DNA of 64,000 nucleotides from a virus, in IMG/VR virus record IMGVR_UViG_3300047160_006900, positions 53,406 to 117,405 of that record. One strand, 5' to 3'. Position numbers and translations under genes: made by a program. The notes beneath the pieces were generated by a model that made no database searches, was not told the origin of the DNA, and saw only the letters and a list, made by a program, of their open reading frames with translations. This document shows positions 2 to 19,662 of the stretch, piece after piece (positions within the stretch are counted from its first letter, which is position 1; every line of letters starts with the position of its first letter).

Positions 2-307
2 ACTGAGGCTCATGGGGGACGGCTCTGGGACCCCAAGCCCTACGGGAAGCCGTGGTGGGATGACCGGCTGAACGACATCCTCTACTACGACGGCCGTTGG
101 TATGAGGTCAGTGATTTCCAGATCCGAGGCCGTGCTCGCCAGGACACGGTAGTGGGGGTGACCGGGATCGAGACCCAGCCCATGGACGAGCGGATCTACG
201 ACCTCTTCCCCCGTGACCCACAGCCACAGTACGTGCCCAATGTGCTGATCGGTGAAGACGGACAGCCGCTTCTCGATGAAGACGGCATCACCCCGTTGAC
301 CCCGTAG
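2..307 (+). CDS. Partial (5'-truncated) head-tail joining/neck-like protein
   Basis: Open frame from the window edge to TAG at 305-307 (..[22 protein letters not shown]..); sits upstream of neck and tail genes. Confidence 0.5.
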
Positions 308-315
308 GAGCTTCT

Positions 316-1968
316 ATGCCCGTCTCGTCAGACCCCAATCTTCCCCCCGATCAGCTTGCCCCCGAGGATCTCATTCCTGTCGTGGACGTGTCGGCCACCG
401 GGCCGACGAACCCTGGGGGGACCAACAAGAACGTCACTGTGGGTGGACTTGCCACTGTGGTGGCCAGTGGAGGGCCGGTCACACAGGGACCGACCGGCCC
501 GTCGGGACCGGTTGGGGCTACCGGGGTTGGGGACACTGGTCCTGCAGGAGATACCGGACCTCGGGGTTACGGAGGACCGATTGGACCGTCCGGGCTGAAA
601 GGTTCGACCGGAGTCCCGGGGGTTTCCGGTCATATCGGGTCCACCGGCTCTCCGGGAGTGCAAGGAGCTACGGGAGCCCAGGGTATTGCTGGTCGAGCGG
701 GGGCTCCGGGACTCGTCGGGGCCACCGGAGCAGGACTCCCGGGGATGCCGGGAGCCACGGGTCCTGGTGGTGGAGAAACCGGGCCTCCAGGTCCAACCGG
801 ACCTCCAGGAGCAACGGGGACGCCCGGGGCTACGGGGGCGGGGCAAGCGGGAGCGTGTGGTCCGAAGGGTGCTACCGGTGATCTAGGGGCTACCGGGGTT
901 CTTGGCCCTACTGGACCGCCGGGTCTCATTGGTATTACTGGCCCCATGGGGGCCACTGGTCCTGTTGGAGCAACCGGAGGCGGGGCTACCGGGGCTCCGG
1001 GACCTACTGGTTCACAGGGATTCCAGGGTCTTTCTGGAGCGACTGGTCCGCAAGGGTCCATCGGTGTCATCGGACCGACCGGGCCATCGGGGCCGACTGG
1101 TGGGCTGGGAGTATCGGGAGCGACCGGTATCACGGGAGCGACCGGTATTACCGGGGCTACCGGAGTCGGAGTGACGGGCATCACCGGCATCACTGGCCCT
1201 GCGGGAGCTACGGGTGTTACCGGATTCACGGGACCAGTCGGAGCGACTGGGGTAGTCGGTCCAACCGGCTTGGCCGGGGCGACTGGGGTGACCGGCGCTA
1301 CTGGTTCCGGGGCTACGGGGGCAGTAGGACCGACCGGTCCCGGCGGCGGAGCAACCGGTCCGCAGGGTTATACCGGGGTCACGGGGCAGACCGGACCCGG
1401 CGGTGGAGCTACGGGGCCTCAGGGCGCTACGGGAATCACCGGAGCTACTGGTATCACGGGTTCGGCGGGAGCGACGGGGGTCGGGACTCAGGGGATCCAA
1501 GGGATCCAAGGAATCCAAGGATTTCAGGGAGCAACGGGAGTCACGGGATCGGTCGGAGGCCAGGGTCCCCAGGGTGTCCAGGGACCCGTTGGATCCACTG
1601 GGCCTTTGGGATCTACCGGTATCACTGGATCTACTGGCCCGACCGGAGTATCAGCAGCCCAGGTACTAAATGCACAAACCGGTACTTCATACACACTAGT
1701 CGCAGGAGACATCCTCAAGCTCATCACTCTCAGTAACACCGCTGCTATCTCTGTAACAGTGCCACAGGACTCTGCGGTTTCGTGGGCTATCGGATACTGG
1801 TGTGAGTTGTACCAGTTGAACACCGGGCAGGTGACCGTAGTGGCGGGGACGGGGGCCACCCTGCGGGCCACCCCCACAGCCAAGGCTCGGGCTCAGTTCT
1901 CCCGGCTGTTTATTCAGAAGATCGCCGCCAATACGTGGGCGTTGAGCGGGGACGTGGCAGCGTCATGA
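316..1968 (+). CDS. Collagen-like fibre protein with a C-terminal beta domain
   Basis: About 390 aa of interrupted G-X-Y (GAT/GPT) repeats, then [10 protein letters not shown]...[11 protein letters not shown]; AGGAG RBS. Confidence 0.85.
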
Positions 1969-4225: not shown

Positions 4226-6112
4226 ATGGTTGACACGATTGGAGCAACCGGAGCCACTGGTCCTCGGGGACTCGGTGGTCCGGTCGGACCCCGTGGCTAC
4301 ACGGGTCCTGCAGGAGCCACGGGCCCGCAAGGGATCAAGGGTTCCACTGGTGTTCCCGGCACGGTCGGCCCTCCGGGAGCCGGAGCAGACGGTCAGCCAG
4401 GACCCACTGGACCGCAAGGGGCCACTGGCCCTGGCGGTGGTGATCCGGGAGCGACTGGTGTAGTTGGCCAAACGGGAGCGACCGGTCCTCGGGGAGCAAC
4501 TGGTGCTGGTGGTCCGGGAGCCACTGGTCCGCAGGGAGCTACGGGTCAGCCGGGATCCGACGGTTCTAATGGTGTCGATGGTCTTCCTGGCCCCACGGGA
4601 CCTACTGGTGTTGTGGGAGCGACGGGCTCCAACATCGGTATCACCGGTCCGATAGGTCCGACTGGTCCGCAGGGCATCACCGGCCCGATCGGATACACCG
4701 GGGTCCAGGGCAATACGGTTGCAGGGCCGACTGGCCCGCAAGGGATCGCCGGTCCGGTGGGCTCCACCGGGACCCAGGGGCCTGCCGGTACCGGCTCGAC
4801 CGGTCCGACCGGTGTCCAGGGCATCCAGGGCATGACGGGTGTCACGGGTGGTGTGGGAGCCACTGGTGTCGTAGGACCCACTGGTCCTCAGGGATCAGGG
4901 GCCACGGGGGCAGTGGGTCCGACCGGTGTGGCCGGTCCTTCCGGAGCCACAGGTCCCCAAGGTGCTACCGGTGACCCCGGTGGTCCGACCGGAGCAACCG
5001 GTGCCGTTGGAGCAACCGGGCCTGGCGGGGGCGCTACCGGTCCTCAGGGAGCTACTGGTCCTGCCAACGTCGGCTTCACCGGGGTCACCGGAGCAACGGG
5101 TACGGCTGGTATCCAGGGCACGCAGGGAGCTACCGGTTCTGGTGGTCCCGCCGGGGCCACTGGTGCTGGCATCGTGGGTCCCACCGGAGCCACGGGTGCC
5201 GTCGGTGCTCCGGGTATCCAGGGCATCCAGGGTGGGCTTGGGCCAACTGGAGCCACCGGTCCCTTCGGACCCCAGGGCTTCACTGGCCCGCAGGGCATCC
5301 AGGGGACCACGGGTCCCACCGGCCCAGTGGGGTCGGCGGGTGCCCAGGGTATTCAGGGTGCTGCTGGTGCTGTCGGAGCCACGGGGACGACCGGAGCCAC
5401 TGGTTCGGGAGCCACGGGGACGGCCGGGGTTGTCGGGGCCACTGGTCCTTCCGGAGCCACCGGGGTCACGGGAGCGGTCGGAGCCACCGGTATCACCGGG
5501 GCGGAGTCGGTCAACTCTCGGTCGGACTCGTACATCCTGGCCCTGTCGGACGCCAACAACATCGTGGAGATGACCAAGGCCACGGCCTCGGCCGTTACCG
5601 TGCCCAACAACACCGACGTGGCCTTCGCCGTCGGGACCAACTGCGACATCATCCAGATGGGTGCTGGTCAGGTCTCGGTTGTGGCAGCAGCGGGGGTGAC
5701 GCTCGACACATCGTCCACCCTCAAGCTCCGTCAGCAGTACTCGGCGGGCACGTTGCTGAAGGTGGCCACCAACGAGTGGGTGTGGCTGGGAGACACCGAG
5801 CCTCCGGGTCAGACCATCCAGACCAAGACCGCCAACTACACCTTGGCCATCACCGACGCCTGGACGTTCATCGAAATGAGTGCCGCTGGGGCGCTCACGT
5901 TGACCATTCCGGCCAACTCGGTGGTGGCGTTCCCGATCGGTACCCACGTCGATATCGGGCAGTGGGGAGCCGGTCAGGTGACCGTGGCGATCACCACTGA
6001 CACCCTGCGAGCAACCCCGACAGCGAAGCTGCGGGCTCAGTACTCCACCGCCACGCTCATCAAGGTGGCGGCGACGGAGTGGGCTGTCATGGGGGACATG
6101 GCTGCGTCATGA
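4226..6112 (+). CDS. Collagen-like fibre protein with a tandem-duplicated C-terminal beta domain
   Basis: About 420 aa of G-X-Y; two copies of the domain that ends 316..1968; ends GDMAAS. Confidence 0.85.
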
Positions 6113-6879
6113 GCATGTTCACGTCGGGCGTCCCAGGAATCATGGCGAGCGAGGAGATGCAGGGGACTGGGCTCGTCACGGTCGCCAGTAAGACGAACTG
6201 GGGTAGCAACGCTGATGCCTCGTCGTACGTCTCGTCGTCAGTCACCACGACCGCAGGGGCTCTCTGCATTCTGGTGGGGATGTGGACCGTCGCATCCCCA
6301 TCAGTTGCCAACGCAACGATTTCGGGGGCAACGTGCTTGAGCAACCTCAATGGCGTGTCGAACGCTGCGTTCAACTCCGTCGGAGCCCCGCTCTATGAGA
6401 TCGAGGTGTGGATCGCCAAGGGGACCGGGACGGCAAGCACGATCACGGCGTCATTTGGTGGGACGCAGACTTCCGGGTTCTTCGTCCTGTTCCAATGTTC
6501 CAACGTCAACGTGGCCGGAGGTCCGATCTGGGGTGGTACCGGAGGAACGAACTACGGCGTGCAGCAGGTCCAGACCATCAACGACGGGCTTGTGTATGAC
6601 ATGACCCGAGCAACGGGAACCGGTATCGGCTGCCCCTTGAACCCGTTCACCAGTATCAACAACGGGACCTTCTCTGTGGTGGGCGTGGACTACCCCCCGA
6701 CCTGGGATCCCAACATCGTGAAGCCGGGATGGACCTGTCCATGGTCTCCGGCCTGGGTCAACCCGTCAGCCGGGGCTGCGGCTGCGTGGACGGCATACAA
6801 CGATCAGACCCCGAAGTTCTATGCCAACGCCACGTCCCAGAAATTTGCTGGCGTGTCCATGGAGTTGGTCTCCATCTGA
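6109..6879 (+). CDS. Beta-rich virion protein, paralogous to the N-terminus of 61577..63070
   Basis: ATGA overlap; [14 protein letters not shown] aligns with FNTGASPLNKQEVW. Confidence 0.65.
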
Positions 6880-6892
6880 TGAGGGTTGCCTG

Positions 6893-9800
6893 ATGCGAGG
6901 AAATCGGGTCTCTAGCTACAAGCAGTGGCGACGTCCTCATCCGTCCCTGGAAGTTCCTGGTCCTCCGGCTTCCAATCAGCCCAACATGATCATCACCGGG
7001 GTGACGTCCAACCCTACAGCCCCGGTGGCTGGCGATCATGTGGTCTTCACGGCCACGGTGCAGAACATTGGCGGAGCGTCGACTCCCGCTGGGACTGTCG
7101 TGGACGTGCTGTTTGACCCAAACGGTGTCGTAGCGGCTGGTCAGCCCACTACCGCTGTCACTTGGGAGGACACATATACGACCGCTATTCCTCCTGGAGG
7201 AACCGTTGTCCTGACTGCCACGGGTGGATCGGTTGGATACTCGGCGGGTCCCCCGGTTGTTCCGGGACAGAACTATTGGGTGGCGGTGTCGGGAACATAC
7301 CCAATCCACTGCACGGTCAACAGCAACAACCGGTTCCCGGAATCGAATCTGGCTGACAATACCTTCGATCTGAGTCTCGTCGTGGCCCCGTCGAGCGTGG
7401 CAACGCCTCCGGCGGCTCCGACCCTGACTGCGACTCCGGGGAACGCCACTGTTGGGTTGTCCTGGACGGTGCCGAACAACAACGGCTCTGCGATCACTAG
7501 CTACAACATCTACAAGAACACCGTGCTGTTGACCTCCGTGGCATCGACGGTCACGACCTACACCGACAATGCCGTTACCAATGGGACGTCGTACTCCTAT
7601 GTGGTATCGGCCGTGAATGCGATCGGGGAGGGGTCCAAGTCCATCGCTGTTTCAACGACTCCGAACGTGACCTCGCCGCCCTCGGCTCCGACGCTGAACG
7701 GGACGAGCGGCAATGCCGTGAACCACCTGACTTGGACGGCCCCATCGGCTGGGGCTCCGTTCACGGGGGTCTGGGTATATCGGGGCGGGGCTTCGTACAA
7801 CCACATCACTACGACCCCGTTGCCCACGACACAGGATGACGTCGGGGTCACGAACGGCACGACCTACAGCTACACCGTGGCTTACGAGAACGCCGTCGGT
7901 ATCGGGACTCAGTCCAACACCATTACTTTGACGCCGGTCAGTGTTCCTGCCGCTCCGGTGCTCACCGCTACATCCGGATCAGCGCAGGTGGGCTTGTCGT
8001 GGACGACTCCGGCGGCGAACGGGTCCACGATCACCGGCTACAAGGTGTACCGCAACGGGACGTTGCTCGCTTCCCCGACAGCCTCGCCGTACACGGATAC
8101 CACCGGAACCGTGGGGACGTCGTATTCCTACACCGTCAGTGCGGTGAACTCGATCGGGGAAGGCCCACAGTCGACCGCACAGTCGGCGGCTTCGACGGCC
8201 ATCACGGTCCCTGCCGCTCCGGTGCTCATGGTGCAGTCGGTGGGCAGCAACTCTGTGTCGTTGTCCTGGACGATCCCGGCGAACAACGGATCGGCCCTGG
8301 TCAACTACAAGGTCTACCGCAACAGCGCTCTGATCTACACGCAGACCCAGTTCCTCGATTCACCGGCTTATGGGGACGGTGGGGCGGTCAACGGCACCAC
8401 ATACACGTATCAGGTCTCAGCTACCAATGGGATCGGGGAAGGTCCCAGGTCCAACACGGTGACCGCCACGCCGTCGGCAGTCGGTATCCCCTCGATCCCG
8501 GCTGACGTCGTGGCCGGGGTACCGGGGAGTGATGTCGTCTCGTTCGGTGGGATCGGACATAGCTTCCAGTCGCAAGCGAACTATCAGACCTGGAAGTCTT
8601 GGCACTTCAACGGGCACACCATGGTCCCCAATGGGTCGGGGAACGCTCAGACCTCGTCGCAGCGATTCAAGGGTGCTTCCTCCCAGAACGACACCACTCC
8701 GGGGATCTACGACTCTCAACGACTCACGGAAGGGTGGGGCGTTGCAGCCCTGAATGGGGGTTCACAGAACTCCCCCAACAACAACCTCGGGGCGATCAAC
8801 GCTTTTCGGAATGGGACCATCAAGTACGTCGGGTTCTTCATTGGCGTCGGCCCGGGTACCAATGATCTTCCGAACATCTATGACACCACCCAACGGGCGA
8901 AGGCTGCTCAGCGGGTCGCTGATATCGCTGCCTTCATGAAGTACATCCATCCGACTCGGACCTTCATTCAAAACGACTGGGAAGTTTCGGATTGGAGTAA
9001 GACCTCGTCAAATAACAACTCTCATACCCTGGCGGATTTCCAGACGACGTATGAGCAGTGGGGCTATGAGATCGGGACGGCGATCTACAGCACAGCGGGG
9101 CATACCGGGGCTATCTGGGGGCTCTACAACTTTGAGGTCTACGGCATGTGGATCTCACTCGTTCGGGCCAATAACGCTTCGCAGGCAGCAGGGCATGGCC
9201 CGTTGGCGGCTCCATACACGCCGGATACTACGAGCACTCCTGCTCCGGTCCCGAACTACACCGTGGTCGGGGGCGCTGCCATGGATGGCAAGACCCTGTG
9301 TATGGCGGGGCTGATGCGTGCCCATGCTCAGTTTCAGGCTACGGGACCGATTCTCAAGACCGACGACATGTTTTATCGGCCTCCGCAGTATGGCGGGGCG
9401 TCCTATGACACGGCGCTGAAGTGGAATACCCAGGGCTGGATGGATTTCTGGTCCCACTACTTGCCGCAGTCGACGTGGGATCAGGTAGCCCCCTATCTCG
9501 GTATCGTCCCCTTCACCTGGAGCGGGACTGACCGGAGCACGTTCTCGACCGATACCCAGTTCCCGGAGCCGACGCAGACCAACCTGTGGGCATCGTGCCG
9601 GAAGTACAGCATGTTCGGGTTGCGGATGGATTACACCTACGGGGGCTATTTCGGAACCCCGGGCCTGGTCGGAAATCCTCCGTACACACAGACTGACAGT
9701 TACTCGGGCGGCGAGGGTCTCTGGGGGGTGTATTCGGTCAAGATCGGGACCACCACCGTCTACGCCAACGATCATACGCAGCCGCAGGCGAATGAGGCCC

Positions 9801-10462
9801 AGGTCAACTCCGCTGTCCAGATCACCGTGCCGCATGTTCCGGCTGGGACCGGCATTGTCGATGTCGTGGTCACCACCTCCAAGGGTGGGACGAACGGCTG
9901 GGGTGGAGTCAGTGCCCGGGGTGGGGCAGCGAAGTTCAACTACGGGGACGGTGGTCCTGATACTTCGACCACCGGAGCGGCGACTGGACCGTCTCCACCC
10001 ACGATTACGAGTATCAGCCCGTCGACCGGAGCGGCGAACTCCCAGATCGTCATCACCGGTACGAACTTCATGGGGAACGACTATCAGACCCCGTCTGGTC
10101 GTATCGCTGCCATGCAGCCGACGATCGACCCCACGCCGCAGGACACTACTGCGATCACGGTGGGGACGATCACCCAGGCTCGTAGTGGGACCACGGTCAC
10201 GCTGACCTTCAACATGCAGCATCCGTTTGGGATGCATCACGCCACCTGGCTGCTCTACTCCACGGATGGAGTACTGGTGACCGCCCAGGGTGAGGCCAGG
10301 CTGACGTACAACCTGGGGGGTGGGAGTCCGACCGGGGGGATTCCGAACTCCTCCATGGACTGTGTAGCCACGATCCCCAACGCCACGGCGGGACTCTACG
10401 TCATCCTCACCTGCGTCTCCGCCATCGGCCAGCGGACGTCACGAAGGATTCAGTTGGCATGA
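6893..10462 (+). CDS. Array gene A: leader + CARDB/Ig + 4 FN3 + glycosidase-like core + IPT/TIG-like segments + C-terminal domain
   Basis: ATG at 6893 matches the leader shared with its paralogues; FN3 pattern LSW..P..GS.I..Y.VY...Y.Y.VSAVN.IGEG; PTITSISPSTG is TIG-like. Confidence 0.8.
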   Translation: MRGNRVSSYKQWRRPHPSLEVPGPPASNQPNMIITGVTSNPTAPVAGDHVVFTATVQNIGGASTPAGTVVDVLFDPNGVVAAGQPTTAVTWEDTYTTAIPPGGTVVLTATGGSVGYSAGPPVVPGQNYWVAVSGTYPIHCTVNSNNRFPESNLADNTFDLSLVVAPSSVATPPAAPTLTATPGNATVGLSWTVPNNNGSAITSYNIYKNTVLLTSVASTVTTYTDNAVTNGTSYSYVVSAVNAIGEGSKSIAVSTTPNVTSPPSAPTLNGTSGNAVNHLTWTAPSAGAPFTGVWVYRGGASYNHITTTPLPTTQDDVGVTNGTTYSYTVAYENAVGIGTQSNTITLTPVSVPAAPVLTATSGSAQVGLSWTTPAANGSTITGYKVYRNGTLLASPTASPYTDTTGTVGTSYSYTVSAVNSIGEGPQSTAQSAASTAITVPAAPVLMVQSVGSNSVSLSWTIPANNGSALVNYKVYRNSALIYTQTQFLDSPAYGDGGAVNGTTYTYQVSATNGIGEGPRSNTVTATPSAVGIPSIPADVVAGVPGSDVVSFGGIGHSFQSQANYQTWKSWHFNGHTMVPNGSGNAQTSSQRFKGASSQNDTTPGIYDSQRLTEGWGVAALNGGSQNSPNNNLGAINAFRNGTIKYVGFFIGVGPGTNDLPNIYDTTQRAKAAQRVADIAAFMKYIHPTRTFIQNDWEVSDWSKTSSNNNSHTLADFQTTYEQWGYEIGTAIYSTAGHTGAIWGLYNFEVYGMWISLVRANNASQAAGHGPLAAPYTPDTTSTPAPVPNYTVVGGAAMDGKTLCMAGLMRAHAQFQATGPILKTDDMFYRPPQYGGASYDTALKWNTQGWMDFWSHYLPQSTWDQVAPYLGIVPFTWSGTDRSTFSTDTQFPEPTQTNLWASCRKYSMFGLRMDYTYGGYFGTPGLVGNPPYTQTDSYSGGEGLWGVYSVKIGTTTVYANDHTQPQANEAQVNSAVQITVPHVPAGTGIVDVVVTTSKGGTNGWGGVSARGGAAKFNYGDGGPDTSTTGAATGPSPPTITSISPSTGAANSQIVITGTNFMGNDYQTPSGRIAAMQPTIDPTPQDTTAITVGTITQARSGTTVTLTFNMQHPFGMHHATWLLYSTDGVLVTAQGEARLTYNLGGGSPTGGIPNSSMDCVATIPNATAGLYVILTCVSAIGQRTSRRIQLA

Positions 10463-13272
10463 GGAATATCCGGACTGGCAGCTACAAGAGCTTCCGTCGA
10501 CCGTGGCCCCGAACCGAGATCCCTGGCCCTCCGGTGGGCGTGGCTGTGGCTAACCCCCCGATTCTGCAGGCCGCTGCCGGAAATGCTTCCGTGGTCTTGA
10601 CGTGGACTGTGCCCTTCGGAGCGGGGAGCACCGTTACTGGCTACAAGGTGTACAAGAACGGTTCCCTGCTCAGCCAGGTGACCGGTTTGACCCTCACCGA
10701 CAACTCCGTGACCAACGGGACGACGTATTTCTATGCCGTCTCGGCGCTGAACGCCATTGGGGAGAGCCTGACCTCACCCCCAGTGAGTGCGACTCCCTCC
10801 GGCACGCAGCCGACGGCTCCTCCGGCCCCGGTGATCACGGGGACGGCAGGGGACAAAACCGCCGCTGCTCACTGGGGCACTTTGGTAACCGGGGGATCCC
10901 CCATCACCCACTTGCAGCCGCTCCTGAATGGGTCGGCAGTGGACGATTTCTCTGACCCGAACAACATCAACGGTGGGATCGCCACTTACACCAATCTGAC
11001 CAACGGTACCTTGTACGCCCTCAGCATCAAGGTGATCAATGCTGTCGGCTCTGCTACTTCCAACGTGGTGAATGTGACCCCGGTGGGGGCAGCGACGGCT
11101 CCGTCGGCCCCGGTCCTGCAACTCACGGCGGGGAACACGCAGAACACCTTGACGTGGAATACCCCGGCCAATGGTGGGTCTGCCATCACGGGGTACAAGC
11201 TGTATCGGAACACGGTTGCCTTGCTCACCCTGGGCGTGGTGACGACCTACACCGATACCGGGCTGACCAATGGGACGCTGTACACCTACACGATCACCGC
11301 CCTCAATGCGGTAGGGGAGAGCGTTCAGTCGGCGGCGGTGGCCGGGACTCCGACTGGTACCCAGACTGTCCCCGGGGCTCCGGTGTTGTCCGGGACGGTC
11401 GGAGACACCTTCGTCAACCTGACCTGGACGGTCCCGGCGACGGGGGGTGCAGCCCTCACTGGCTACAAGATCTATCGGGGTGGGGTGTTGGTCACCAGCA
11501 CGGTCCCGGGAACGACCTACACGGATTCAGGCCTGACCAACGGCACGGCCTATACGTACACCGTGTCGGCGGTCAACAGCGTCGGAGAAGGGCCACTGTC
11601 GAATGCCCTGGTGCGGACCCCGGTGGCTGCCACCGGTTCACCCACTCTCCCCGCCAACCAACTGGTGGGTCAGCCCTCGTATCGGGCGATCTCCTGGGGC
11701 GGGGCGAACTTCGTGGACGTCAGTCAATCCGAGATGGATACCTGGAAGGGTTGGGGGTTCTATGCGACATCCACCGCTGGGATCGCTGGTTATATCGGTC
11801 AAGCGCTGAGTGGGTCTGGACAGCTTCCTATTGATACGCCGAATCATGCGGGGTCTCAGTATCAGTGGCAGCGAGCCTTTGAGGGGTACACGGTCAGTGG
11901 GGTTAACACCTCAGGTCCGGATTCCAACGTCATCCTGGGTCTGGGTCCCTTCTATCGAACGAAGATCCATAACGACCCGACCTATGAGTCGTATCTCTCG
12001 GTCCATCCGGATACCTATCCGACCGGCGTATCCCCAGTCCTGCATGACTGGTGGGACGACACTTGGTGGGCCAACACAGCGGCATGGTTTGGAATGGTGG
12101 CTCGGGATCTCAAGAATGTCCTGGGGGGATCCGGTATCGGCTTCGATACTGAGAGCGGAGCCTGGGGCACGCTGGTAGCAGGCCATACCTGGGATCAGCA
12201 GAACCAGCAGGTCTTTAACCGTGGCTATCAGTGCGCCACGGCGTTCTGGCAGAACTTCCCGGATGGGAAGGTCTTCACCTACGACTACCGCCACTCCGGT
12301 GGCTGGCAGGAATACCTCTCTGGGTTCTACAACTCGGGTGATACCCGAACCATGCGTGCTAGCGGAGCCCAGACGTACTGGCATCTCGGTTGGGTCAAGG
12401 CGATGTGTGACTTTGGGAGTGTCAACTCCCGGCACATGACCATGGACGCCGTGTTCTACGTCTGGGGGGAATACGGATATCAGGCTGCGAACGGGACCGA
12501 CTGTCGAATCGCCCGCTTGAAGATCAACTGCGAGAGCGGCATGTCGCTGATGTCCCAGGAATATCCCTACGGGGTCGGGCAGGCGTCCTGGAGCAAGGGT
12601 GGGGACCGGATCCGGTTCATCCCGGCGTCCTGGCCTGATGGCGCTTCCGACAAGACCACCATGACTTCTCCGGCGACCTGGGCAGTGCAGACCGCTGCTG
12701 ACCGGGAAGGAAGCATGGGGGAGTGGCGGTGTGTCTACCACGGAACTGAATCTGGTTCCGCTGGATGGCCGGGAGGGACTCCGGGTGGAACGTTCTACTC
12801 CGTCTACGGGAATACCAGTAGTGCGGTCTGGGGTATGGGGACGACGCATCTTGCGGCGAACCAGGCTGCAGCGAACCCGGCTGCGCTCACTGGTGATACC
12901 CAGGTAGCGACCTGTATCAACCTCTCCTGGACCGGATCGACGTTGACCTGTCGTGCCGCCCACAAGTACGGCATCTGGTATGTCGAGGTCTTCAACGGGG
13001 CCGCCTTCAACCCGGCCAACCCTGAGGCCTCCCGGCTGGGGCTCATGCAAATGTCCTGGGGGCGTCCGTCGTGGCCGGAGTATGTCGGGGCTGCTGGGAG
13101 TGCCGGGGGGTCTCCGTCGAACGCCAACATGTACACGACGGGAGCCATGGTTGCGGACAGCTACGTGGACTGCACCTTCCCCACCTCGGGAGCGGTCGGG
13201 GACTGGCGGGTGCTCAAGGTCATGACGGCCAAGATGGACACGTCCTGGTTCAAGGTGCAGCGGACGTCATGA
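10459..13272 (+). CDS. Array gene B: leader + 4 FN3 + glycosidase-like core + C-terminal domain
   Basis: FN3 repeats; GSGIGFDTE motif; aromatic-rich core. Confidence 0.8.
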   Translation: MRNIRTGSYKSFRRPWPRTEIPGPPVGVAVANPPILQAAAGNASVVLTWTVPFGAGSTVTGYKVYKNGSLLSQVTGLTLTDNSVTNGTTYFYAVSALNAIGESLTSPPVSATPSGTQPTAPPAPVITGTAGDKTAAAHWGTLVTGGSPITHLQPLLNGSAVDDFSDPNNINGGIATYTNLTNGTLYALSIKVINAVGSATSNVVNVTPVGAATAPSAPVLQLTAGNTQNTLTWNTPANGGSAITGYKLYRNTVALLTLGVVTTYTDTGLTNGTLYTYTITALNAVGESVQSAAVAGTPTGTQTVPGAPVLSGTVGDTFVNLTWTVPATGGAALTGYKIYRGGVLVTSTVPGTTYTDSGLTNGTAYTYTVSAVNSVGEGPLSNALVRTPVAATGSPTLPANQLVGQPSYRAISWGGANFVDVSQSEMDTWKGWGFYATSTAGIAGYIGQALSGSGQLPIDTPNHAGSQYQWQRAFEGYTVSGVNTSGPDSNVILGLGPFYRTKIHNDPTYESYLSVHPDTYPTGVSPVLHDWWDDTWWANTAAWFGMVARDLKNVLGGSGIGFDTESGAWGTLVAGHTWDQQNQQVFNRGYQCATAFWQNFPDGKVFTYDYRHSGGWQEYLSGFYNSGDTRTMRASGAQTYWHLGWVKAMCDFGSVNSRHMTMDAVFYVWGEYGYQAANGTDCRIARLKINCESGMSLMSQEYPYGVGQASWSKGGDRIRFIPASWPDGASDKTTMTSPATWAVQTAADREGSMGEWRCVYHGTESGSAGWPGGTPGGTFYSVYGNTSSAVWGMGTTHLAANQAAANPAALTGDTQVATCINLSWTGSTLTCRAAHKYGIWYVEVFNGAAFNPANPEASRLGLMQMSWGRPSWPEYVGAAGSAGGSPSNANMYTTGAMVADSYVDCTFPTSGAVGDWRVLKVMTAKMDTSWFKVQRTS

Positions 13273-15152
13273 AAGGCCTCCGGACCGCTGCGAGCTATCG
13301 GTCGTGGAAGGTTCCACGGCCGTCCCTGGAGGTCCCTGGGCCTCCGGTGGGTGGGGCGGTGGTTCCAGCGGCTCCGTCGTTGGTGGGTACGGCCGGAGTC
13401 GGGCAGGCGAATCTGTCGTGGACCGTTCCCGCTAATGGGGGCAGCACAATCACCAGCTACAACATCTATCGCAATGGGGTGTTCTTGGCCTCGGTCGCCA
13501 ACAACCCCATTCCGATGATTCCCGCTGATGTGGTAGCAGCGACTCCAACCTGGCAGTTCATCAGCCAGGGCAGCTACGAGAACTACAACGCCAGCGCTGC
13601 CAACTATCAGACCTGGAAGGGTTGGGGTATCGGCGGTCATGTGTTCCGGCTGGGCGCTGCCGGTGACAACATGACGCAGATCGGGCAGGGCACCACCACC
13701 GCCAACGTGTTGGATGACCCCCACAAGTGGCAGCACGCCATGGAGGGTTACGCCTACAACGGGATCAACACGACCAACCCGACGTCGAACGTGCAGCAAA
13801 ACATGGGGATCAAGATCGCCCATGACACCGATCCGTCGATCGAGTTGTGGATGTGGATCCAGCTCATGTTGCCGGGTGATCCGTGGGACGACGCCGCCTG
13901 GTCGGCATGGGCGACGTTCATGGCTGGTCGGGCGGCGTGTCTGAAGTTCTTCGGCGGGACTGGGTTCTTCACTGATACTGAGCGGCCCGGGAAGGGCAAC
14001 GGGACCACCCAGTTCTCGCAGGGTGTGTGTTGGGACGTCAACGCCCAGCCGACCAGTCCCGGTCACATCGTCAATCCGGCCGACACGGGCCACACGTTCT
14101 CCCAGATGTGTACGCAGATGGAAGCTCGGGGCTATCAGGTCGGCCAGCAGATCTACGCCGCTTTTCCTGATATCTCGATCGGCTACTACGACACGATCCC
14201 CACCGGGTCGTGGGTGAACATGAACGTCTACCCGCAGACCGACGGGACGACCACCACCCCGCAGGTGCTCCCCGACCCGGGGACCGGCTATCGGGGTGGG
14301 TACGACGGCTGCACGCAGAACGCCTACAACCCGAAGATGCAGTTGCTGCTGGGGATGCTCCGGGCAGGTATGGAGGCGAACACCAAGGGCACCTTTACGT
14401 TCGTGGATCATCGTCTCGGCTACTACCTGGGTGCTGCGGCTACTGGTAATAGCTCCGTCGACTACCAGACAGCATGGAAGTGGAGCAATCACTACATACT
14501 CGCCCATTTCAGCCAGGAGTTGTCCCAACCGATGCGGGACTTCTGGATGTCCAAGTTGCACAACACGTTCAACACCTGGGGGAACGCCGAATCGGTGAGC
14601 ACCTTCTCCCAGCAAAACGAGGTGAGCGAGGCGGGGTACAACACGCAACTGACCTATGCCCGGAAATGGGCGACGAGTACCCGTATGTTCAACTTCCAGA
14701 ACTGGCCTCGTCCTGACGGCATCACTCCGGCCGGGACCGGGTTGTGGTCGGGGCAATGCCCCTACACTTACCCGACGACCCGTATCCCAGCGATGCAGAC
14801 GCTGGCGTCGCAGACGCAGAATGTCGATTCGACGCCGATCACGGTGGGGACGATCGGCCAGGCTCGGAGTGGGACCACGGTGACGCTCACCTTCTCCTGC
14901 TCGCATGTCATTGGGATCCATCACGTCCACTGGACGTTGTACGCCTCGGATGGGAACACCATCGCTGGACAAGGCGAAGCGGTGATGACCGTCAACCTGA
15001 ATGGGGCTACGACCACTACACCGATAGCCAGCTTTAACCCGTCGATGGATTGCACGGTGACGGTACCGAACGCCATCGCCGGTCTCTACGTCATCCTGGA
15101 CGTGTACTCCATCAAGGACCAACGCACGTCTCGACTAGTGCAGGTGACGTGA
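13269..15152 (+). CDS. Array gene A': leader + N-terminal half of an FN3 + A-type core and C-terminal domain
   Basis: ATGA overlap at 13269; GTGFFTDTE motif; C-terminus paralogous to gene A. Confidence 0.8.
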   Translation: MKGLRTAASYRSWKVPRPSLEVPGPPVGGAVVPAAPSLVGTAGVGQANLSWTVPANGGSTITSYNIYRNGVFLASVANNPIPMIPADVVAATPTWQFISQGSYENYNASAANYQTWKGWGIGGHVFRLGAAGDNMTQIGQGTTTANVLDDPHKWQHAMEGYAYNGINTTNPTSNVQQNMGIKIAHDTDPSIELWMWIQLMLPGDPWDDAAWSAWATFMAGRAACLKFFGGTGFFTDTERPGKGNGTTQFSQGVCWDVNAQPTSPGHIVNPADTGHTFSQMCTQMEARGYQVGQQIYAAFPDISIGYYDTIPTGSWVNMNVYPQTDGTTTTPQVLPDPGTGYRGGYDGCTQNAYNPKMQLLLGMLRAGMEANTKGTFTFVDHRLGYYLGAAATGNSSVDYQTAWKWSNHYILAHFSQELSQPMRDFWMSKLHNTFNTWGNAESVSTFSQQNEVSEAGYNTQLTYARKWATSTRMFNFQNWPRPDGITPAGTGLWSGQCPYTYPTTRIPAMQTLASQTQNVDSTPITVGTIGQARSGTTVTLTFSCSHVIGIHHVHWTLYASDGNTIAGQGEAVMTVNLNGATTTTPIASFNPSMDCTVTVPNAIAGLYVILDVYSIKDQRTSRLVQVT

Positions 15153-17728
15153 TGCCGGTCCCGACGACCTACACCGATACCGCTGTGACCGGCGGAATCT
15201 CGTACTCCTACGCTGTGTCGGCGGTGAATGCGGTCGGGGAGGGTTCTCGATCGAACACGGTCTCAGTGATCCCTACCACGGTGGCGACCGCTCCCCCCGC
15301 CCCCACCATCACGGTGACGGCGGGAAATGCTTCGGCCACTATCCACTGGACGTGGCCGTTGGCCGACGGTGGGTCTCCGATCACCCACCTGCAGCCCTTT
15401 ATGAACGGGGTGCAGATCGATGATTTGTCGGCACCGTCCTCGTTGTCCGCAGGGGTCTACACGTTCAACAACCTGACCAACGGGACGTCCTACAGCTTCT
15501 TCATCCGGGTCGTGAACGCCATCGGGACCAGCCCGAACTCCAACACTGTGTCGGCCACCCCGGTGGCGGCTGCTACGGCCCCGTCGGCTCCGGTGTTGTC
15601 AGGGACGGCCGGGAATGCCCAGGCGGTGTTGAACTGGACTACTCCCGCCAATGGGGGATCGGCCATCACCGGATACAAGGTGTATCGGGGTGGGGGTCTC
15701 ATCACCACGTTGGGCGTGGTGAACACCTACACCAACACTGGCCTGACCAACGGGACGGGATACAACTACACGGTCACGGCGATCAATGCGGTGGGAGAGA
15801 GCACTCAATCCAACACGGTGACGCTCACGCCATCGGCTCCAGTTATCACCGTGCCCTCGGCTCCGGTGTTGTCGGGGACGGCGTCCAGCACCCAGGTCAG
15901 TCTGTCCTGGACGACGCCTTCCTCCAATGGTGGAGCAGCGATCACCGGGTACAACCTCTATCGGGGTGGGGCTCAACTGGTGATCCTGGGCGTGGTGACG
16001 TCCTACAACGACACCGGCCTGATCAATGGGACGGCCTACTCCTATTCCGTGACGGCGGTTAACAGCCAGGGGCAGAGTGCTCAATCGAACACGGTGACGT
16101 TGACCCCCTCCGTGGTGTCCTCACCGACGCTGCCTGCCAATCAGATCGTCGGCCAGCCGTCGTGGAAATCAACTTCCTGGGGCGGCTACGGGTACATCTA
16201 CGCCTATACCGCTCTGATCGATAGCTGGGTACCGTGGGGGTTCGTCGGTCAAGCCGTCTTCAGCCCCGCCACCCACTTGGGCCTCGGAATGACGGGAAGC
16301 TCCCAGCTAGCGACCGATGTGCCGAACACTCCGGGTTCCCAATACGCCGACCAACGAAGTCAGGAGGGGCTGGCCAATGGGACGGTCGGGATCGCTGGTC
16401 GGGGTTCCTTCTACAACCAGAAGACCCATGACCCGACCAATGAGACGTACCTGAAGTTCTATACCAATAACCAACAGAACACGGGGACGTATCCACCGTT
16501 CCACGATTGGTTCGATGACGCTTTCTGGACGAACACCGGGTATCCCTGGTTCGCCATGATCGGTCGGGATGTCAAGAACCTTGGGGGTTCTGGGATCGGA
16601 TTCGATACCGAACCTGCGGACTGGTCCAAGCTGGCTCCCGGGAAGACCGCAGCCCAACAAGAGCAGCAAGTGTTCAACGTCGCCTATGAATGCGCCCGTC
16701 AGTTCTACACGAACTTCCCGAACGGCGGGGAACTCTCCTACATGTGGAACTCCCCGCAGGGTGGGTTCGGGCACTGGCTTCGTGGCTGGTACTACAACGG
16801 CGATACCCGGATCGGCACGACTCAGATTGGTGCAAACGCCACTTGGTACTTCGCCTGGTTGAAGGGGATGTGTGATTTCGGGGGGCCGGGCGCAAAGGTC
16901 ATCCACATGCAGGCCGATTTCTATTCCCTCGGGGAGGGTTCGGCGGGCATGAATGGGGAGTCGAATCAGTACAACACCCGGTTGGCGAAGCTGAAGATGC
17001 AGGCCGAGGGGATTTATGCGTGCTTGTCACAGCCCTATCCCCTGGGGCTTGGGGCAACGTCGTGGAATAACGGCTGCGACAAGATCTATTTCGTCCCATC
17101 CGCATGGGCGGCGGGATACACCACGAACCCGAGGATGAACCCGTCGCAGTGGATGACCATGATGACCTGTGACCGTGTCGGCAGTATTGGGCCGTACAAG
17201 AACACCTACATGGGTGGCGATGCGGGTGGTCTTTCCTCCACACCGGATTCGAAGTGGTACGCCATCGCTGGTGATTCCACTTCGGCGGTCCAGGGCTTCG
17301 GTACCACCCACAATGCCGCCTGTGTAGCGGGGGCGGATCAGACGCCGATCCCGACCGTAGCTCCTACCTGTACGAACCTGTCCTGGACCGGTTCCACGAT
17401 CTCCTGTCGGGCAGCGCATCAGTACGGGGTCATCTACGTCAAGGTCTACAACGGGGCTGGGTTCGACCCAGCGAATCCTGACCCCAACTATCTCGGGGCC
17501 ATGCAGATGGTCTGGAATCACCCCAGCCTGCCTGACTACGTCGGGATCGCCGGGAACGCCCCTGGAGGTAGTAATCCCGGCGCTAGTGCTATCACGCTGG
17601 CCAAGATGGCTGATACTTATCAGCAATGCACGTACCCGACTACGGGGAACTTGGGAGATTGGCGGGTCCTGAAAGTGGTCTCCGCCAAGATGGATGTGGG
17701 CTGGTTCAAGGTCCAACGCACGTCATGA
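15152..17728 (+). CDS. Array gene B': C-terminal half of an FN3 + 3 FN3 + B-type core and C-terminal domain
   Basis: TGATG coupling; begins MPVPTTYTD, mid-FN3; GSGIGFDTE; ends WFKVQRTS like gene B. Confidence 0.8.
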   Translation: MPVPTTYTDTAVTGGISYSYAVSAVNAVGEGSRSNTVSVIPTTVATAPPAPTITVTAGNASATIHWTWPLADGGSPITHLQPFMNGVQIDDLSAPSSLSAGVYTFNNLTNGTSYSFFIRVVNAIGTSPNSNTVSATPVAAATAPSAPVLSGTAGNAQAVLNWTTPANGGSAITGYKVYRGGGLITTLGVVNTYTNTGLTNGTGYNYTVTAINAVGESTQSNTVTLTPSAPVITVPSAPVLSGTASSTQVSLSWTTPSSNGGAAITGYNLYRGGAQLVILGVVTSYNDTGLINGTAYSYSVTAVNSQGQSAQSNTVTLTPSVVSSPTLPANQIVGQPSWKSTSWGGYGYIYAYTALIDSWVPWGFVGQAVFSPATHLGLGMTGSSQLATDVPNTPGSQYADQRSQEGLANGTVGIAGRGSFYNQKTHDPTNETYLKFYTNNQQNTGTYPPFHDWFDDAFWTNTGYPWFAMIGRDVKNLGGSGIGFDTEPADWSKLAPGKTAAQQEQQVFNVAYECARQFYTNFPNGGELSYMWNSPQGGFGHWLRGWYYNGDTRIGTTQIGANATWYFAWLKGMCDFGGPGAKVIHMQADFYSLGEGSAGMNGESNQYNTRLAKLKMQAEGIYACLSQPYPLGLGATSWNNGCDKIYFVPSAWAAGYTTNPRMNPSQWMTMMTCDRVGSIGPYKNTYMGGDAGGLSSTPDSKWYAIAGDSTSAVQGFGTTHNAACVAGADQTPIPTVAPTCTNLSWTGSTISCRAAHQYGVIYVKVYNGAGFDPANPDPNYLGAMQMVWNHPSLPDYVGIAGNAPGGSNPGASAITLAKMADTYQQCTYPTTGNLGDWRVLKVVSAKMDVGWFKVQRTS

Positions 17729-17811: not shown

Positions 17812-19662
17812 ATGTCAACTGATCTCCGGAAGCCCGGTGTCTACGTCGAGGAGTCGCTGCTCCTCGGGACGCCCGACGTCTCTGCGGCCACATCGGTGGC
17901 GCTGTTCGTGGGAGCGGCCGGGAAAGGACCGATCTCCTACCCGGTGCTGCTTAACTCCTGGTCGGACTACGTCCTGAGTTTCGGGGCGTTCGACACCATG
18001 GTGGGACCGGCGGGGGACACCAACGTTTACACCACGTACCTGCCCTACGCCGTGTACTCGTACTTCCAGAACGGTGGACAACCGGCCTACGTGTACCGGG
18101 CCGTGGGCTCGACTTCCGGAGGCGCTGCTGAACTCACCGTGACCGACGGGCAGAGTGAGTTCGCCACGGTCCAGTCGGTGCAGTTCACGGCGGGGACCGG
18201 CCAGGACACCGGGACTGGTCGGGTCACGATCACCACCGTGGGGCCGCACGGCTATGACGCCGAGGACATGGTGTCCACCGTGGTGGACACCAACACCTTC
18301 GTGAACGCCACTGCCGGTGTCTCGGTCATCTCCGACACCAAGTACGCCTACTACATCACGTCGGACCACATCGATATGACCGACACTCCGGACACGGGTG
18401 TCGCCTCCACCACGGGTGAAGAGGTCTTCACGGTCTCGGCCAACAGCGTTGGCTCGGGAGGGAACTCCCTCGGGATCACCATCCAGATCGTGGATCCCAT
18501 CAACGGGGTGTTCAACCTCAGCATCTACAGCAACACTACTGAGGTCGAGCGGTTCCAGTACCTGACCATGACCGGGGACACCCCCGGGACCCGCAAGCTG
18601 GATGCGGCGATCAACGACCCCTACTCCGGCTCCACGTTGGTGAGGGTGTCGAACCCCGACAGCACCCTGGTCCCGGCCAGTATCTCCAACATCATGAATC
18701 TCTACGGTGGGGTGGACCCCGGCCTGCCCGACCCGGCCACCGACTTCATCACCACTGCCCAGGCAGCGGCGGGGGTCATCGATGGGCCGATCATCGTCAA
18801 CCTCGTCGGCTACACCACCAACACCAACGACCCGGATGCGTTCCAGATCCCGGCGGCGGTGTCCTCGGCCACCTTCGGGGACCGGGGAGACATCTTCGTG
18901 GTTAATGACGGGGCCAAGCAGCGTCCGTACAACCTGTCCCCGGCGGCGTACAAGACCAGCCTCAGCGCCACGCTGGGCCAGAACGCCGGGGACTCGTACA
19001 CGGCCTCGTTCACCCCGTGGATCATCATCCCCGACCCCAAGAGCGCAGGGGCCACGATCACCGTCCCTCCGGGTGGTGCCGTGGCTGGGGTCATCAGTCG
19101 GGTTGATAGCACTATCGGGGTGTTCCGTGCCCCAGCGGGCATCGTGGCCCAGGTCACCAACGCTGTCGGGGTGGACACCAAGTTCTCCGACAACGACCTG
19201 GGGGATCTCAACGTCTCCAATATCAATGTCATCCGGCCCGTGCAGGGGCAGGGCATCGCCGTCATGGGGGCCCGGACTCGCAAGCTGTACGGAGCGGACC
19301 GCTACATCTCCGGTCGCCGCACGCTCATCTACATCAAGGAGAGTCTGCGACGGTCCACGCAGTACGCATTGTTTGAGAACAACGACCAGCGGTTGTGGTC
19401 GCAGTTGATCATGACCGCCGAGCGACTGCTCCGGCCGCTGTGGGAGGCCGGTGGTCTGCGGGGCAACAACGCTACCCAGGCGTACTACATCCAGTGCGAC
19501 GACGTGATCAACACCCCCGCCATGATCCAGTCAGGCGAGGTTCGGATGGAGGTCGGGGTGTCGCTGGAGTACCCCGCCGAGTTCATCGTTATCCGGGTCA
19601 CGCAGTTTGAGAGTGGTGGAACCACCGCCGAAGTCATCCAGCCCGTTGGACCAACCGGTTAA
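17812..19662 (+). CDS. Tail sheath protein
   Basis: KPGVYVEE start; YFQNGG; VPPGGAVAG; VFRAPAG; FENND..LW; YPAEFIVIR. Confidence 0.97.
   Translation: MSTDLRKPGVYVEESLLLGTPDVSAATSVALFVGAAGKGPISYPVLLNSWSDYVLSFGAFDTMVGPAGDTNVYTTYLPYAVYSYFQNGGQPAYVYRAVGSTSGGAAELTVTDGQSEFATVQSVQFTAGTGQDTGTGRVTITTVGPHGYDAEDMVSTVVDTNTFVNATAGVSVISDTKYAYYITSDHIDMTDTPDTGVASTTGEEVFTVSANSVGSGGNSLGITIQIVDPINGVFNLSIYSNTTEVERFQYLTMTGDTPGTRKLDAAINDPYSGSTLVRVSNPDSTLVPASISNIMNLYGGVDPGLPDPATDFITTAQAAAGVIDGPIIVNLVGYTTNTNDPDAFQIPAAVSSATFGDRGDIFVVNDGAKQRPYNLSPAAYKTSLSATLGQNAGDSYTASFTPWIIIPDPKSAGATITVPPGGAVAGVISRVDSTIGVFRAPAGIVAQVTNAVGVDTKFSDNDLGDLNVSNINVIRPVQGQGIAVMGARTRKLYGADRYISGRRTLIYIKESLRRSTQYALFENNDQRLWSQLIMTAERLLRPLWEAGGLRGNNATQAYYIQCDDVINTPAMIQSGEVRMEVGVSLEYPAEFIVIRVTQFESGGTTAEVIQPVGPTG

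Follow-up and report, generated by a model that had tools for sequence, protein, structure and literature searches.

The locus described here raises the question of how one protein domain came to be divided between two adjacent genes. It lies in a virus record of 117,405 bp (IMG/VR record IMGVR_UViG_3300047160_006900), which carries direct terminal repeats and is estimated to be complete; the window analysed is a stretch of 64,000 nucleotides, bases 53406-117405 of that record, and coordinates below are those of the window. An array of four long genes, here called A, B, A' and B', is found on its plus strand, and their products combine fibronectin type III (FN3) domains with one of two types of core, A-type or B-type. 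Gene A' (13269..15152, +; 627 aa) codes for a leader, the N-terminal half of an FN3 domain, an A-type core and a native C-terminus with its stop codon, while gene B' (15152..17728, +; 858 aa) is leaderless and codes for the C-terminal half of an FN3 domain, three intact FN3 domains and a B-type core. The analysis confirmed that these two coupled genes share a single FN3 domain, which is interrupted by a nested core module. The pair probably represents a gene fission, in which a paralogous enzyme module became fixed within the C'-E loop of the first FN3 domain of a B-type gene.

The division of the domain was examined with a profile hidden Markov model (HMM) of 93 positions, trained on the 11 FN3 domains that are intact in A (four), B (four) and B' (three) and run on 64 proteins, namely the four array proteins and 60 relatives. 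A' matched at HMM positions 3-50 only (residues 31-81, E-value 9e-17), and B' gave an extra N-terminal match at positions 51-92 only (residues 3-44, 2e-12). The two halves are complementary, with neither overlap nor gap: the break falls at positions 50/51 and together they span positions 3-92, and neither protein holds in its split domain a complete FN3 of seven strands and about 90 residues. The N-terminal half (13359..13511, +) comprises strands A, B, C and C', with a low to moderate predicted local distance difference test score (pLDDT) of 41-67 in the model of A' without its partner, and the C-terminal half (15158..15283, +) comprises strands E, F and G. The 28 matches of the model consisted of 23 full-length domains, two partial ones in a single relative (P0138) and three halves, those of A', of B' and of P0128, which is a fragment of A' itself. 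The E-values of the halves are comparable to those of whole FN3 domains in relatives outside the training set (4e-17 to 4e-31). A Pfam scan of A' returned no family, fn3 being below threshold. Alignment with the 11 intact domains indicated that the consensus core is kept in the halves, i.e., the Trp of strand B, the Tyr of strand C and the Y.Y..A.N..G motif of strand F and the F-G loop. The original prediction for this DNA had described the anatomy in the same terms, with a first FN3 half running into an A-type core in A', the missing half at the start of B', consensus residues retained in both, and a TGATG restart of B' (15150-15154); all of this, including the gene coordinates, agrees with the present data.

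For both halves the closest intact domain is A_fn1 of gene A, with 30/49 identical residues (61%) for the half in A' and 27/43 (63%) for the half in B', whereas their identity with B_fn1 of gene B is 44% and 45%, respectively. Beyond the split domain the resemblance is to gene B (10459..13272, +), which codes for a leader, four intact FN3 domains and a B-type core: B from residue 78 aligns with B' from residue 6 with 50% identity over 872 residues, and residues 1-82 of A' followed by B' are collinear with B and reproduce its unsplit architecture, as had been proposed. Since the split FN3 is closer to A_fn1, the parent gene would have been B-type in architecture, but without B's own first FN3. 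The residue-exact complementarity of the halves and their shared closest domain are the non-trivial evidence for a common origin; two further points raised in the original prediction, a 4-nucleotide match at the two borders and an in-frame join, carry no weight by themselves. Indeed, the CCGA is present on both sides, but as the junctions can be placed with some freedom, chance alone should produce a match of four nucleotides; the join is truly in frame, which is automatic once each side is read in the frame of its own gene.

FN3 repeats are able to confuse assemblers, and the split might then reflect an assembly chimera or a false stop codon, A' and B' being really one protein with a nested domain. 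The junctions were checked in Logan contigs of other runs, where only the contig-covered parts of the stretch are informative. The left junction is crossed with 0 differences by contigs of three runs (X2, 13348-13619, record 13; X3, 13395-13650, record 19; X4, 13434-13606, record 27), and the right junction, together with the stop of A' and the start of B', is covered by a single contig of X2 (14983-15487, record 15), also with 0 differences. The bridging runs have different study codes, yet they may belong to one campaign, and the source sample may be among them. In the genome, the 21-, 25- and 31-mers near both junctions occur only once. Two proteins from other assemblies point the same way: P0128 contains the leader, the half FN3 and the core start through the left junction, with one residue different, and P0121 contains a core reaching the same C-terminal residue and stop, which is the normal C-terminus of the family. 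A hint of FN3 insertions nested in a single chain comes from P0138 (1178 aa), in which about 190 residues of another domain seem to follow strand C of the first FN3 before this FN3 resumes (residues ~37-335; HMM positions 4-64, then 14-91); its AlphaFold2 model has a pLDDT of 25-45 over residues 1-300, and this nested reading is unconfirmed and is not taken as evidence. Thus, the split is not an assembly artefact; the misassembly envisaged in the original prediction is contradicted by the bridging of both junctions, and a chimera or false stop can practically be discounted.

The nested piece has recognizable borders. As placed here, the inserted module (13509..15154, +) includes an IPMIPAD start, the core, a C-terminal beta-sandwich, the native TGA and the ATG of B'. 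The borders 13515-15163 given originally are equally compatible, and their arithmetic is correct (1649 nucleotides, leaving 82 whole codons on the left and four on the right, with CCGA on both sides); a start at about 13509 appears more likely, because the "IPxIPAD" core start is common to A, P0137 and P0139. At the other end, "QRTSR" followed by six residues and the stop is common to A, P0134, P0137 and P0139. Since both the start and the C-terminus are shared with relatives, the inserted piece corresponds to exactly one core module with its native end, and the stop of A' is the module's own rather than a new mutation. As a separate observation, a 26-nucleotide direct repeat with 81% identity, which may be due to chance, links 13286-13311 in the leader (..AASYRSWK..) with 13595-13620 at the core start (..AANYQTWK..).

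The N-terminal modules that precede the same cores in relatives differ widely: the leader alone in P0133 and P0134; a leader, an FN3 and an IPT-like domain (a label assigned by eye) in P0126; a leader, a CARDB-like domain and FN3 in P0124, P0137 and P0139; and no recognizable leader in P0123, and possibly in P0002. On this basis the N-terminal boundary of the core is a habitual exchange point. The proposed event would be a single fixed DNA rearrangement, in which the C'-E loop of the first FN3 in a B-type gene received a copy of a complete A-type module. This copy would have extended from the linker where the family swaps its N-terminal modules, through the native stop, to the following ATG, most likely by illegitimate recombination or template switching. 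The upstream leader and strands A-C' would thereby have been fused in frame to the incoming core, giving A', while the downstream strands E-G, the three FN3 domains and the B core would have become the leaderless B', coupled by stop/start overlap on the same transcript. By reasoning, chimeras like A' can also result from a tandem duplication or from one deletion, but in either case the downstream gene would retain a leader and a whole FN3; among the single-event routes that could be constructed, the insertion of a "core-stop-ATG" piece would be the only one giving both A' and a leaderless B' that begins at strand E.

A route in more than one step can also be considered, in which an A-B pair was duplicated and the copies were truncated independently, A' losing inner domains and B' losing the leader and half an FN3, the complementarity of the halves being coincidental. 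The gene order A-B-A'-B' fits this proposal, and FN3 repeats favour internal deletions. However, the break points agree to the residue (HMM 50/51), and the half in B' resembles A_fn1 (63%), where duplication of the pair would predict a likeness to B_fn1 (45%); a rough estimate of the chance of such agreement, ~3/93 for the position and ~1/11 for the shared best match, is roughly 3 in 1000. Two independent truncations are therefore regarded as very improbable in comparison with the insertion.

The original prediction had also proposed that the nested piece is a cassette that is excised or bypassed, thus switching the enzyme displayed; an invertible cassette can be considered together with it. 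In its favour are the CCGA on both sides and the joined reading frame, the value of which has been discussed above. A joint skipping the cassette, i.e., 13514 linked to 15164, was sought in contigs of four runs and none was seen; their depth is 2-4x and contigs drop rare variants, and a rare joined form would be compatible with this result. No direct or inverted repeats above chance flank the cassette. An Rfam search for intron-like RNA gave one sub-threshold match elsewhere in the region (mir-1206, E 0.61). A -1 frameshift fusing A' to B' was considered and rejected, no slippery heptamer of the type X XXY YYZ being found in the last 300 nucleotides of A'. A near-identical unsplit protein is absent among 5.8 billion clusters, where candidates of near length and shorter ones were searched, the best of the shorter ones reaching 51%. 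Finally, translational bypass of T4 gene 60 covers 50 nucleotides, and a bypass of 1649 nucleotides would be far above this case. A switchable cassette is accordingly hardly credible, and the fixed insertion is retained.

As to the nature of the inserted module, alignment shows a distant homology between the A-type and B-type cores. The core of B' (16130..17725, +) is 47% identical to that of B and 63% to that of the relative P0002, and it keeps the family-invariant D..E motif. A profile of five cores, searched against 1.84 billion representatives, retrieved 161 proteins at E<=0.001, of which 59 reached <=1e-10 and 31 reached <=1e-30. Ig-like accessory domains aside, no Pfam family was found on the cores of A, B, A' and B' or of 10 distant relatives; no PDB sequence match was obtained at E <= 1, and no PHROG match. 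By sequence, as judged by the Pfam and PDB scans, the cores do not belong to any described glycoside hydrolase (GH) family.

The fold could be predicted from an AlphaFold2 model of A' built with a 40-sequence alignment (mean pLDDT 79.4; predicted template modelling score 0.82), which places a strand/helix barrel at residues 96-476 and a beta-sandwich at residues 530-625. In the model, A' has a (beta/alpha)8 barrel resembling the triosephosphate isomerase (TIM)-barrel glycoside hydrolases of clan GH-A. Among the 50 Foldseek matches listed, almost all are carbohydrate-active TIM-barrel enzymes. In the VIA comparison, the best match of the full library is Cwp19 (5oq2; Z 14.7, root-mean-square deviation 4.4, 288 aligned residues), tied with GH5, GH164, GH39 and the PgaB hydrolase domain, which lie within about one Z unit, and many GH barrels score 12-14.7. 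In the 40 sequences D236, E238 and Y307 are invariant and D380 is nearly so; by their conservation, the carboxylates are candidate catalytic residues.

The position of the array is consistent with this prediction. In the Streptomyces phage LuckySocke, the sheath is preceded by a minor tail protein, and a "tailspike protein" is encoded three genes further upstream; the array occupies the site of the tailspike gene in these related myophages. Both core types are probably TIM-barrel, GH-like proteins that act on a host surface polysaccharide, and fold and gene position make it reasonable to regard them as polysaccharide-degrading virion enzymes, representing a previously undescribed family of phage TIM-barrel enzymes. 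Distant homologues occur outside phages as well: a scan of metagenome contigs returned a single one (L006), which is bacterial and has two secreted-looking core homologues (28-1527, minus strand, and 4860-6626, plus strand, of that contig). They flank genes that, when the open reading frames are read by eye, resemble a glycosyltransferase, an O-antigen-ligase-like multi-pass membrane protein and a polysaccharide deacetylase; this suggests, from sequence, that the core family may also act on bacterial exopolysaccharide.

Several points weigh against the insertion reading as a whole. Synonymous sites are saturated among all FN3 copies (Nei-Gojobori, proportion of synonymous differences 0.45-0.75), and for this reason the split cannot be dated. 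The A' core has only about 25% identity with that of A, rising to 55% in the last 128 residues, which indicates that the donor was not gene A and is not in this genome. The composition of the cassette is like that of its neighbours (GC content 0.606; 0.81 at third codon positions) and neither reveals a recent foreign origin nor argues for an insertion. Neither an unsplit orthologue nor the same split was found in the contig scans, and the direction of the event is accordingly presumed. Among the 60 relatives scanned with the model, the A' fragment P0128 is the only one in which an FN3 breaks off at positions 50/51. Scans of viral contigs, with a single protein and with an alignment, as well as of genome contigs, returned no relative, and megablast against phages found nothing. 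Finally, enzyme activity and virion location are drawn solely from fold and gene position, the cores having no sequence match in Pfam, PHROG or PDB. These considerations bear on how the event is read, and the fixed insertion is still considered the probable origin of A' and B'.

A distinct question, on which the insertion origin is neutral, is what the half-domains do at present. It is possible, though doubtful, that strands A-C' of A' and E-G of B' rebuild one FN3 domain, so that B' rides on the leader-bearing A', as in the split-domain docking of the original prediction. This proposal is compatible with the origin by insertion, since it concerns what follows. The exact complementarity of the halves fits with it, as does the fact that they score like whole domains of untrained relatives; coupled translation from one mRNA would place the two chains side by side, and the half FN3 of A' is not confidently folded alone (pLDDT 41-53 over residues 1-60 and about 67 in the C/C' hairpin, residues 61-80). 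Physical reassembly is plausible by analogy with the split FN3 systems discussed below. A complex prediction for A' 22-86 with B' 1-50 was classed as "weak support", with a score of 0.51 compared with 0.13 for the best of three controls; at least 97% of contacts are shared between the runs, with a partner pLDDT of at least 75. In the calibration of this score, 51 of 78 solved complexes attained the mark, compared with 2 of 108 mismatched pairs, while scores of 0.60 or lower that passed came from only five of the 78 solved complexes and from all four passing mismatches (of 180). By calibration this in silico support is weak, and since the halves are of a very common fold, the passing score may be due to their resemblance to known FN3 structures.

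Other data speak against reassembly. The same split occurs in 0 of 60 relatives, which deprives this part of the original prediction of support from conservation; P0123, and possibly P0002, have no recognizable leader, and a leader may thus not be required. A comparison of selection, the relaxation of which the original prediction had named among the refuting outcomes, gave dN/dS values of 0.09-0.63 for the halves and 0.28-0.53 for intact FN3 domains, i.e., no difference, in a comparison that is saturated and integrates the whole history. Because of the leaderless-looking members and the lack of the same split in the relatives, reassembly is given less than an even chance, about the same as the opposite outcome, a tolerated accident.

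In the case of an accident, which we likewise hold possible but short of even, the half-domains would be inert, that of A' serving as a floppy linker and that of B' as a disordered N-terminal tail, with B' free, attached in another way or heading for loss. In P0133 and P0134 the leader is followed almost directly by the core, indicating that A' needs no FN3; P0123 looks leaderless, the split is found in this phage only among the relatives scanned, and residues 1-60 of A' model as unstructured. However, both open reading frames are intact (627 and 858 codons), the halves are without visible decay, and B' keeps the invariant D..E motif together with other columns of the family.

Combining the origin with the first outcome, we tentatively propose, as something less than likely, a two-gene FN3 "snap joint" produced by one insertion, by which one virion anchor carries two polysaccharide-degrading enzymes. 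If the halves reassemble, a second enzyme would be hung on an existing virion anchor without a dedicated adaptor domain, and a single recombination would have created a branched receptor-binding complex, with a bearing on host range and on modular phage-enzyme engineering. More generally, if this is true, a branched host-recognition apparatus could arise in phages by a general one-event route, in which a stop-bearing enzyme module enters an FN3 loop. If the halves do not reassemble, the locus would still be a clean gene fission, datable in principle, by insertion of a paralogous module.

The leader on which the proposed anchoring depends is basic and about 27 aa long in A' (13269..13349, +). 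Pairwise, 15-16 of 30 positions are identical among A, B and A', and the motif ending in [EV/EI]PGPP has three occurrences across the 117 kb of the genome, each of them at the start of one of these three genes (6893-6973, 10459-10539 and 13269-13349). The same leader type is carried by the relatives P0126 and P0133, while a second type, "SRQGAQ...YVPGP", is present in P0124, P0129, P0134 and P0137. We infer that this conserved leader may act as a virion anchor. In the gene calls of the source databases the leader of these two genes was missed each time: B was called from an internal GTG (874 instead of 937 aa) and A' either from an internal GTG (589 aa) or from the ATG at 13515 (545 aa). The latter was rejected as an internal start, having no Shine-Dalgarno-like sequence upstream and corresponding to Ser or Ala in the homologues; similarly, a TTG at 15050 was discarded as an upstream start of B', the resulting extension being unlike the leader.

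A further relative deserves mention. P0299 (370 aa) is a paralogue of the N-terminal region of P0002 (CARDB-like domain and two FN3 domains) and is encoded on the same 15,628-bp JGI contig; it ends inside a third FN3 after strand C', the exit point of A', and its last half-domain, compared by eye, matches the half in A' roughly as well as A_fn1 does. Either truncation at the contig end or a second split is possible.

With regard to the setting, the virus is an uncultured phage, and the public runs in which the stretch occurs are metagenomes from soil. BRock-like Streptomyces myophages, LuckySocke among them, have tail sheaths with 35-41% identity to that of this virus, and for this reason the phage is considered a distant relative of actinobacterial contractile-tailed phages. 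The array lies directly 5' of the sheath (17812-19662) and tube genes. On its other side are two long genes for collagen-like fibres with Gly-X-Y repeats (316-1968 and 4226-6112), whose globular C-termini are related. Gene A (6893..10462, +), the reference paralogue, codes for a leader, a CARDB-like domain, four intact FN3 domains, an A-type core and a C-terminal beta domain; its start is the ATG at 6893, the codon at 6890 being CTG. ATGA overlaps are found at the A/B and B/A' boundaries, and the TGATG stop/start overlap (15150..15154, +) that couples A' to B' is preceded by a Shine-Dalgarno-like AGGTG at 15142-15146. No promoter-like or terminator-like sites were detected on the plus strand of the array, and together with the three overlaps this gives the four genes the appearance of a single unit with coupled translation. 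Cores of both types terminate in a conserved ..QRTS.. tail (10430-10462, 13240-13272, 15120-15152 and 17700-17728); its codons overlap the Shine-Dalgarno-like AAGG/AGGTG and the stop/start overlap of the next gene, and the conservation of this tail may therefore be partly at the RNA level.

In the papers retrieved, as represented by titles and the openings of abstracts, no split FN3 of a phage is described, and no wider absence is claimed. In Aeromonas phage Aeh1, nrdA is split by mobE into two genes, whose products reassemble without splicing or DNA rearrangement (Crona et al. 2010, PMC3045599). The A'/B' pair is similar in that one coding sequence is interrupted by an inserted open reading frame, leaving two adjacent genes. 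However, mobE is described as a mobile homing endonuclease, whereas A' has received a GH-like core from a paralogue, which continues the reading frame of the upstream part; no sign of a mobile element was found in it, there being no Pfam or PHROG match and no flanking repeats. Moreover, assembly in Aeh1 is attributed to new tails created by the insertion, while here the cut falls within a small beta-sandwich and the halves themselves could be the interaction surface, in a putative reassembly.

The structural parallel is offered by HCF-1, the N- and C-terminal fragments of which are held together by half an Fn3 and a one-and-a-half Fn3 module (Park et al. 2012, via PMC6582346). As in its interdigitated Fn3nc (SAS1) module, one chain has a half-domain and the other the complementary half followed by whole FN3, with three intact domains in B'. 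Unlike the phage proteins, which are translated separately from two genes, HCF-1 is eukaryotic and is reported as one polypeptide that is then cleaved; non-covalent association of the chains is described for HCF-1 and is weakly predicted for A' and B'.

Fragment complementation of an FN3 was reportedly described by Dutta and colleagues in 2005. More recently, a synthetic monobody, itself an FN3, split in the CD loop was reported to refold from a 1:1 mixture, with a melting temperature of about 45 C compared with about 78 C for the intact protein (PMC11666773). In both the monobody and the phage pair the FN3 is cut near the middle, in a loop, giving two separate peptides. The synthetic cut is in the CD loop (45/46), as the source gives it, whereas the natural break is one strand later (C'-E) and each half bears a large enzyme, as predicted from the fold.

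An FN3 with an internal insertion is known from the insulin receptor, where the insert domain lies inside FnIII-2, is disordered and cleaved by furin, and the chains are disulphide-linked. In contrast, the insert of A' is, according to the model, a folded enzyme with its own stop codon. For the receptor, FnIII-2 is described together with its insert domain, the two chains staying together (PMC7039211).

From the functional point of view, the comparison is with branched receptor-binding proteins. Those of depolymerase type are as a norm trimeric beta-helices, unlike the enzymes of the array, which are predicted to be TIM-barrel, GH-like and carried on FN3 stalks. In Klebsiella phages, depolymerases share an attachment point, with conserved N-terminal modules and enzymatic domains that are exchanged horizontally (Latka et al. 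2019, PMC6872550; PMC13352976). According to these sources the branching makes use of an anchor, a T4gp10-like branching domain and a docking peptide, while the joint proposed here would be a rebuilt FN3; neither an anchor nor a T4gp10-like domain was detected in the array, where Pfam and PHROGs gave only FN3/Ig-type matches, although the conserved leader of A, B and A' is a candidate anchor. Overall, the genes-in-pieces of Aeh1 are the closest phage precedent, HCF-1 is the closest structural one, and the branched receptor-binding proteins of Klebsiella phages are the closest functional analogy. Genes in pieces and split Fn3 domains were already known; this locus would combine a gene fission with an insert that is a non-mobile, paralogous enzyme and with a possible built-in interaction surface.

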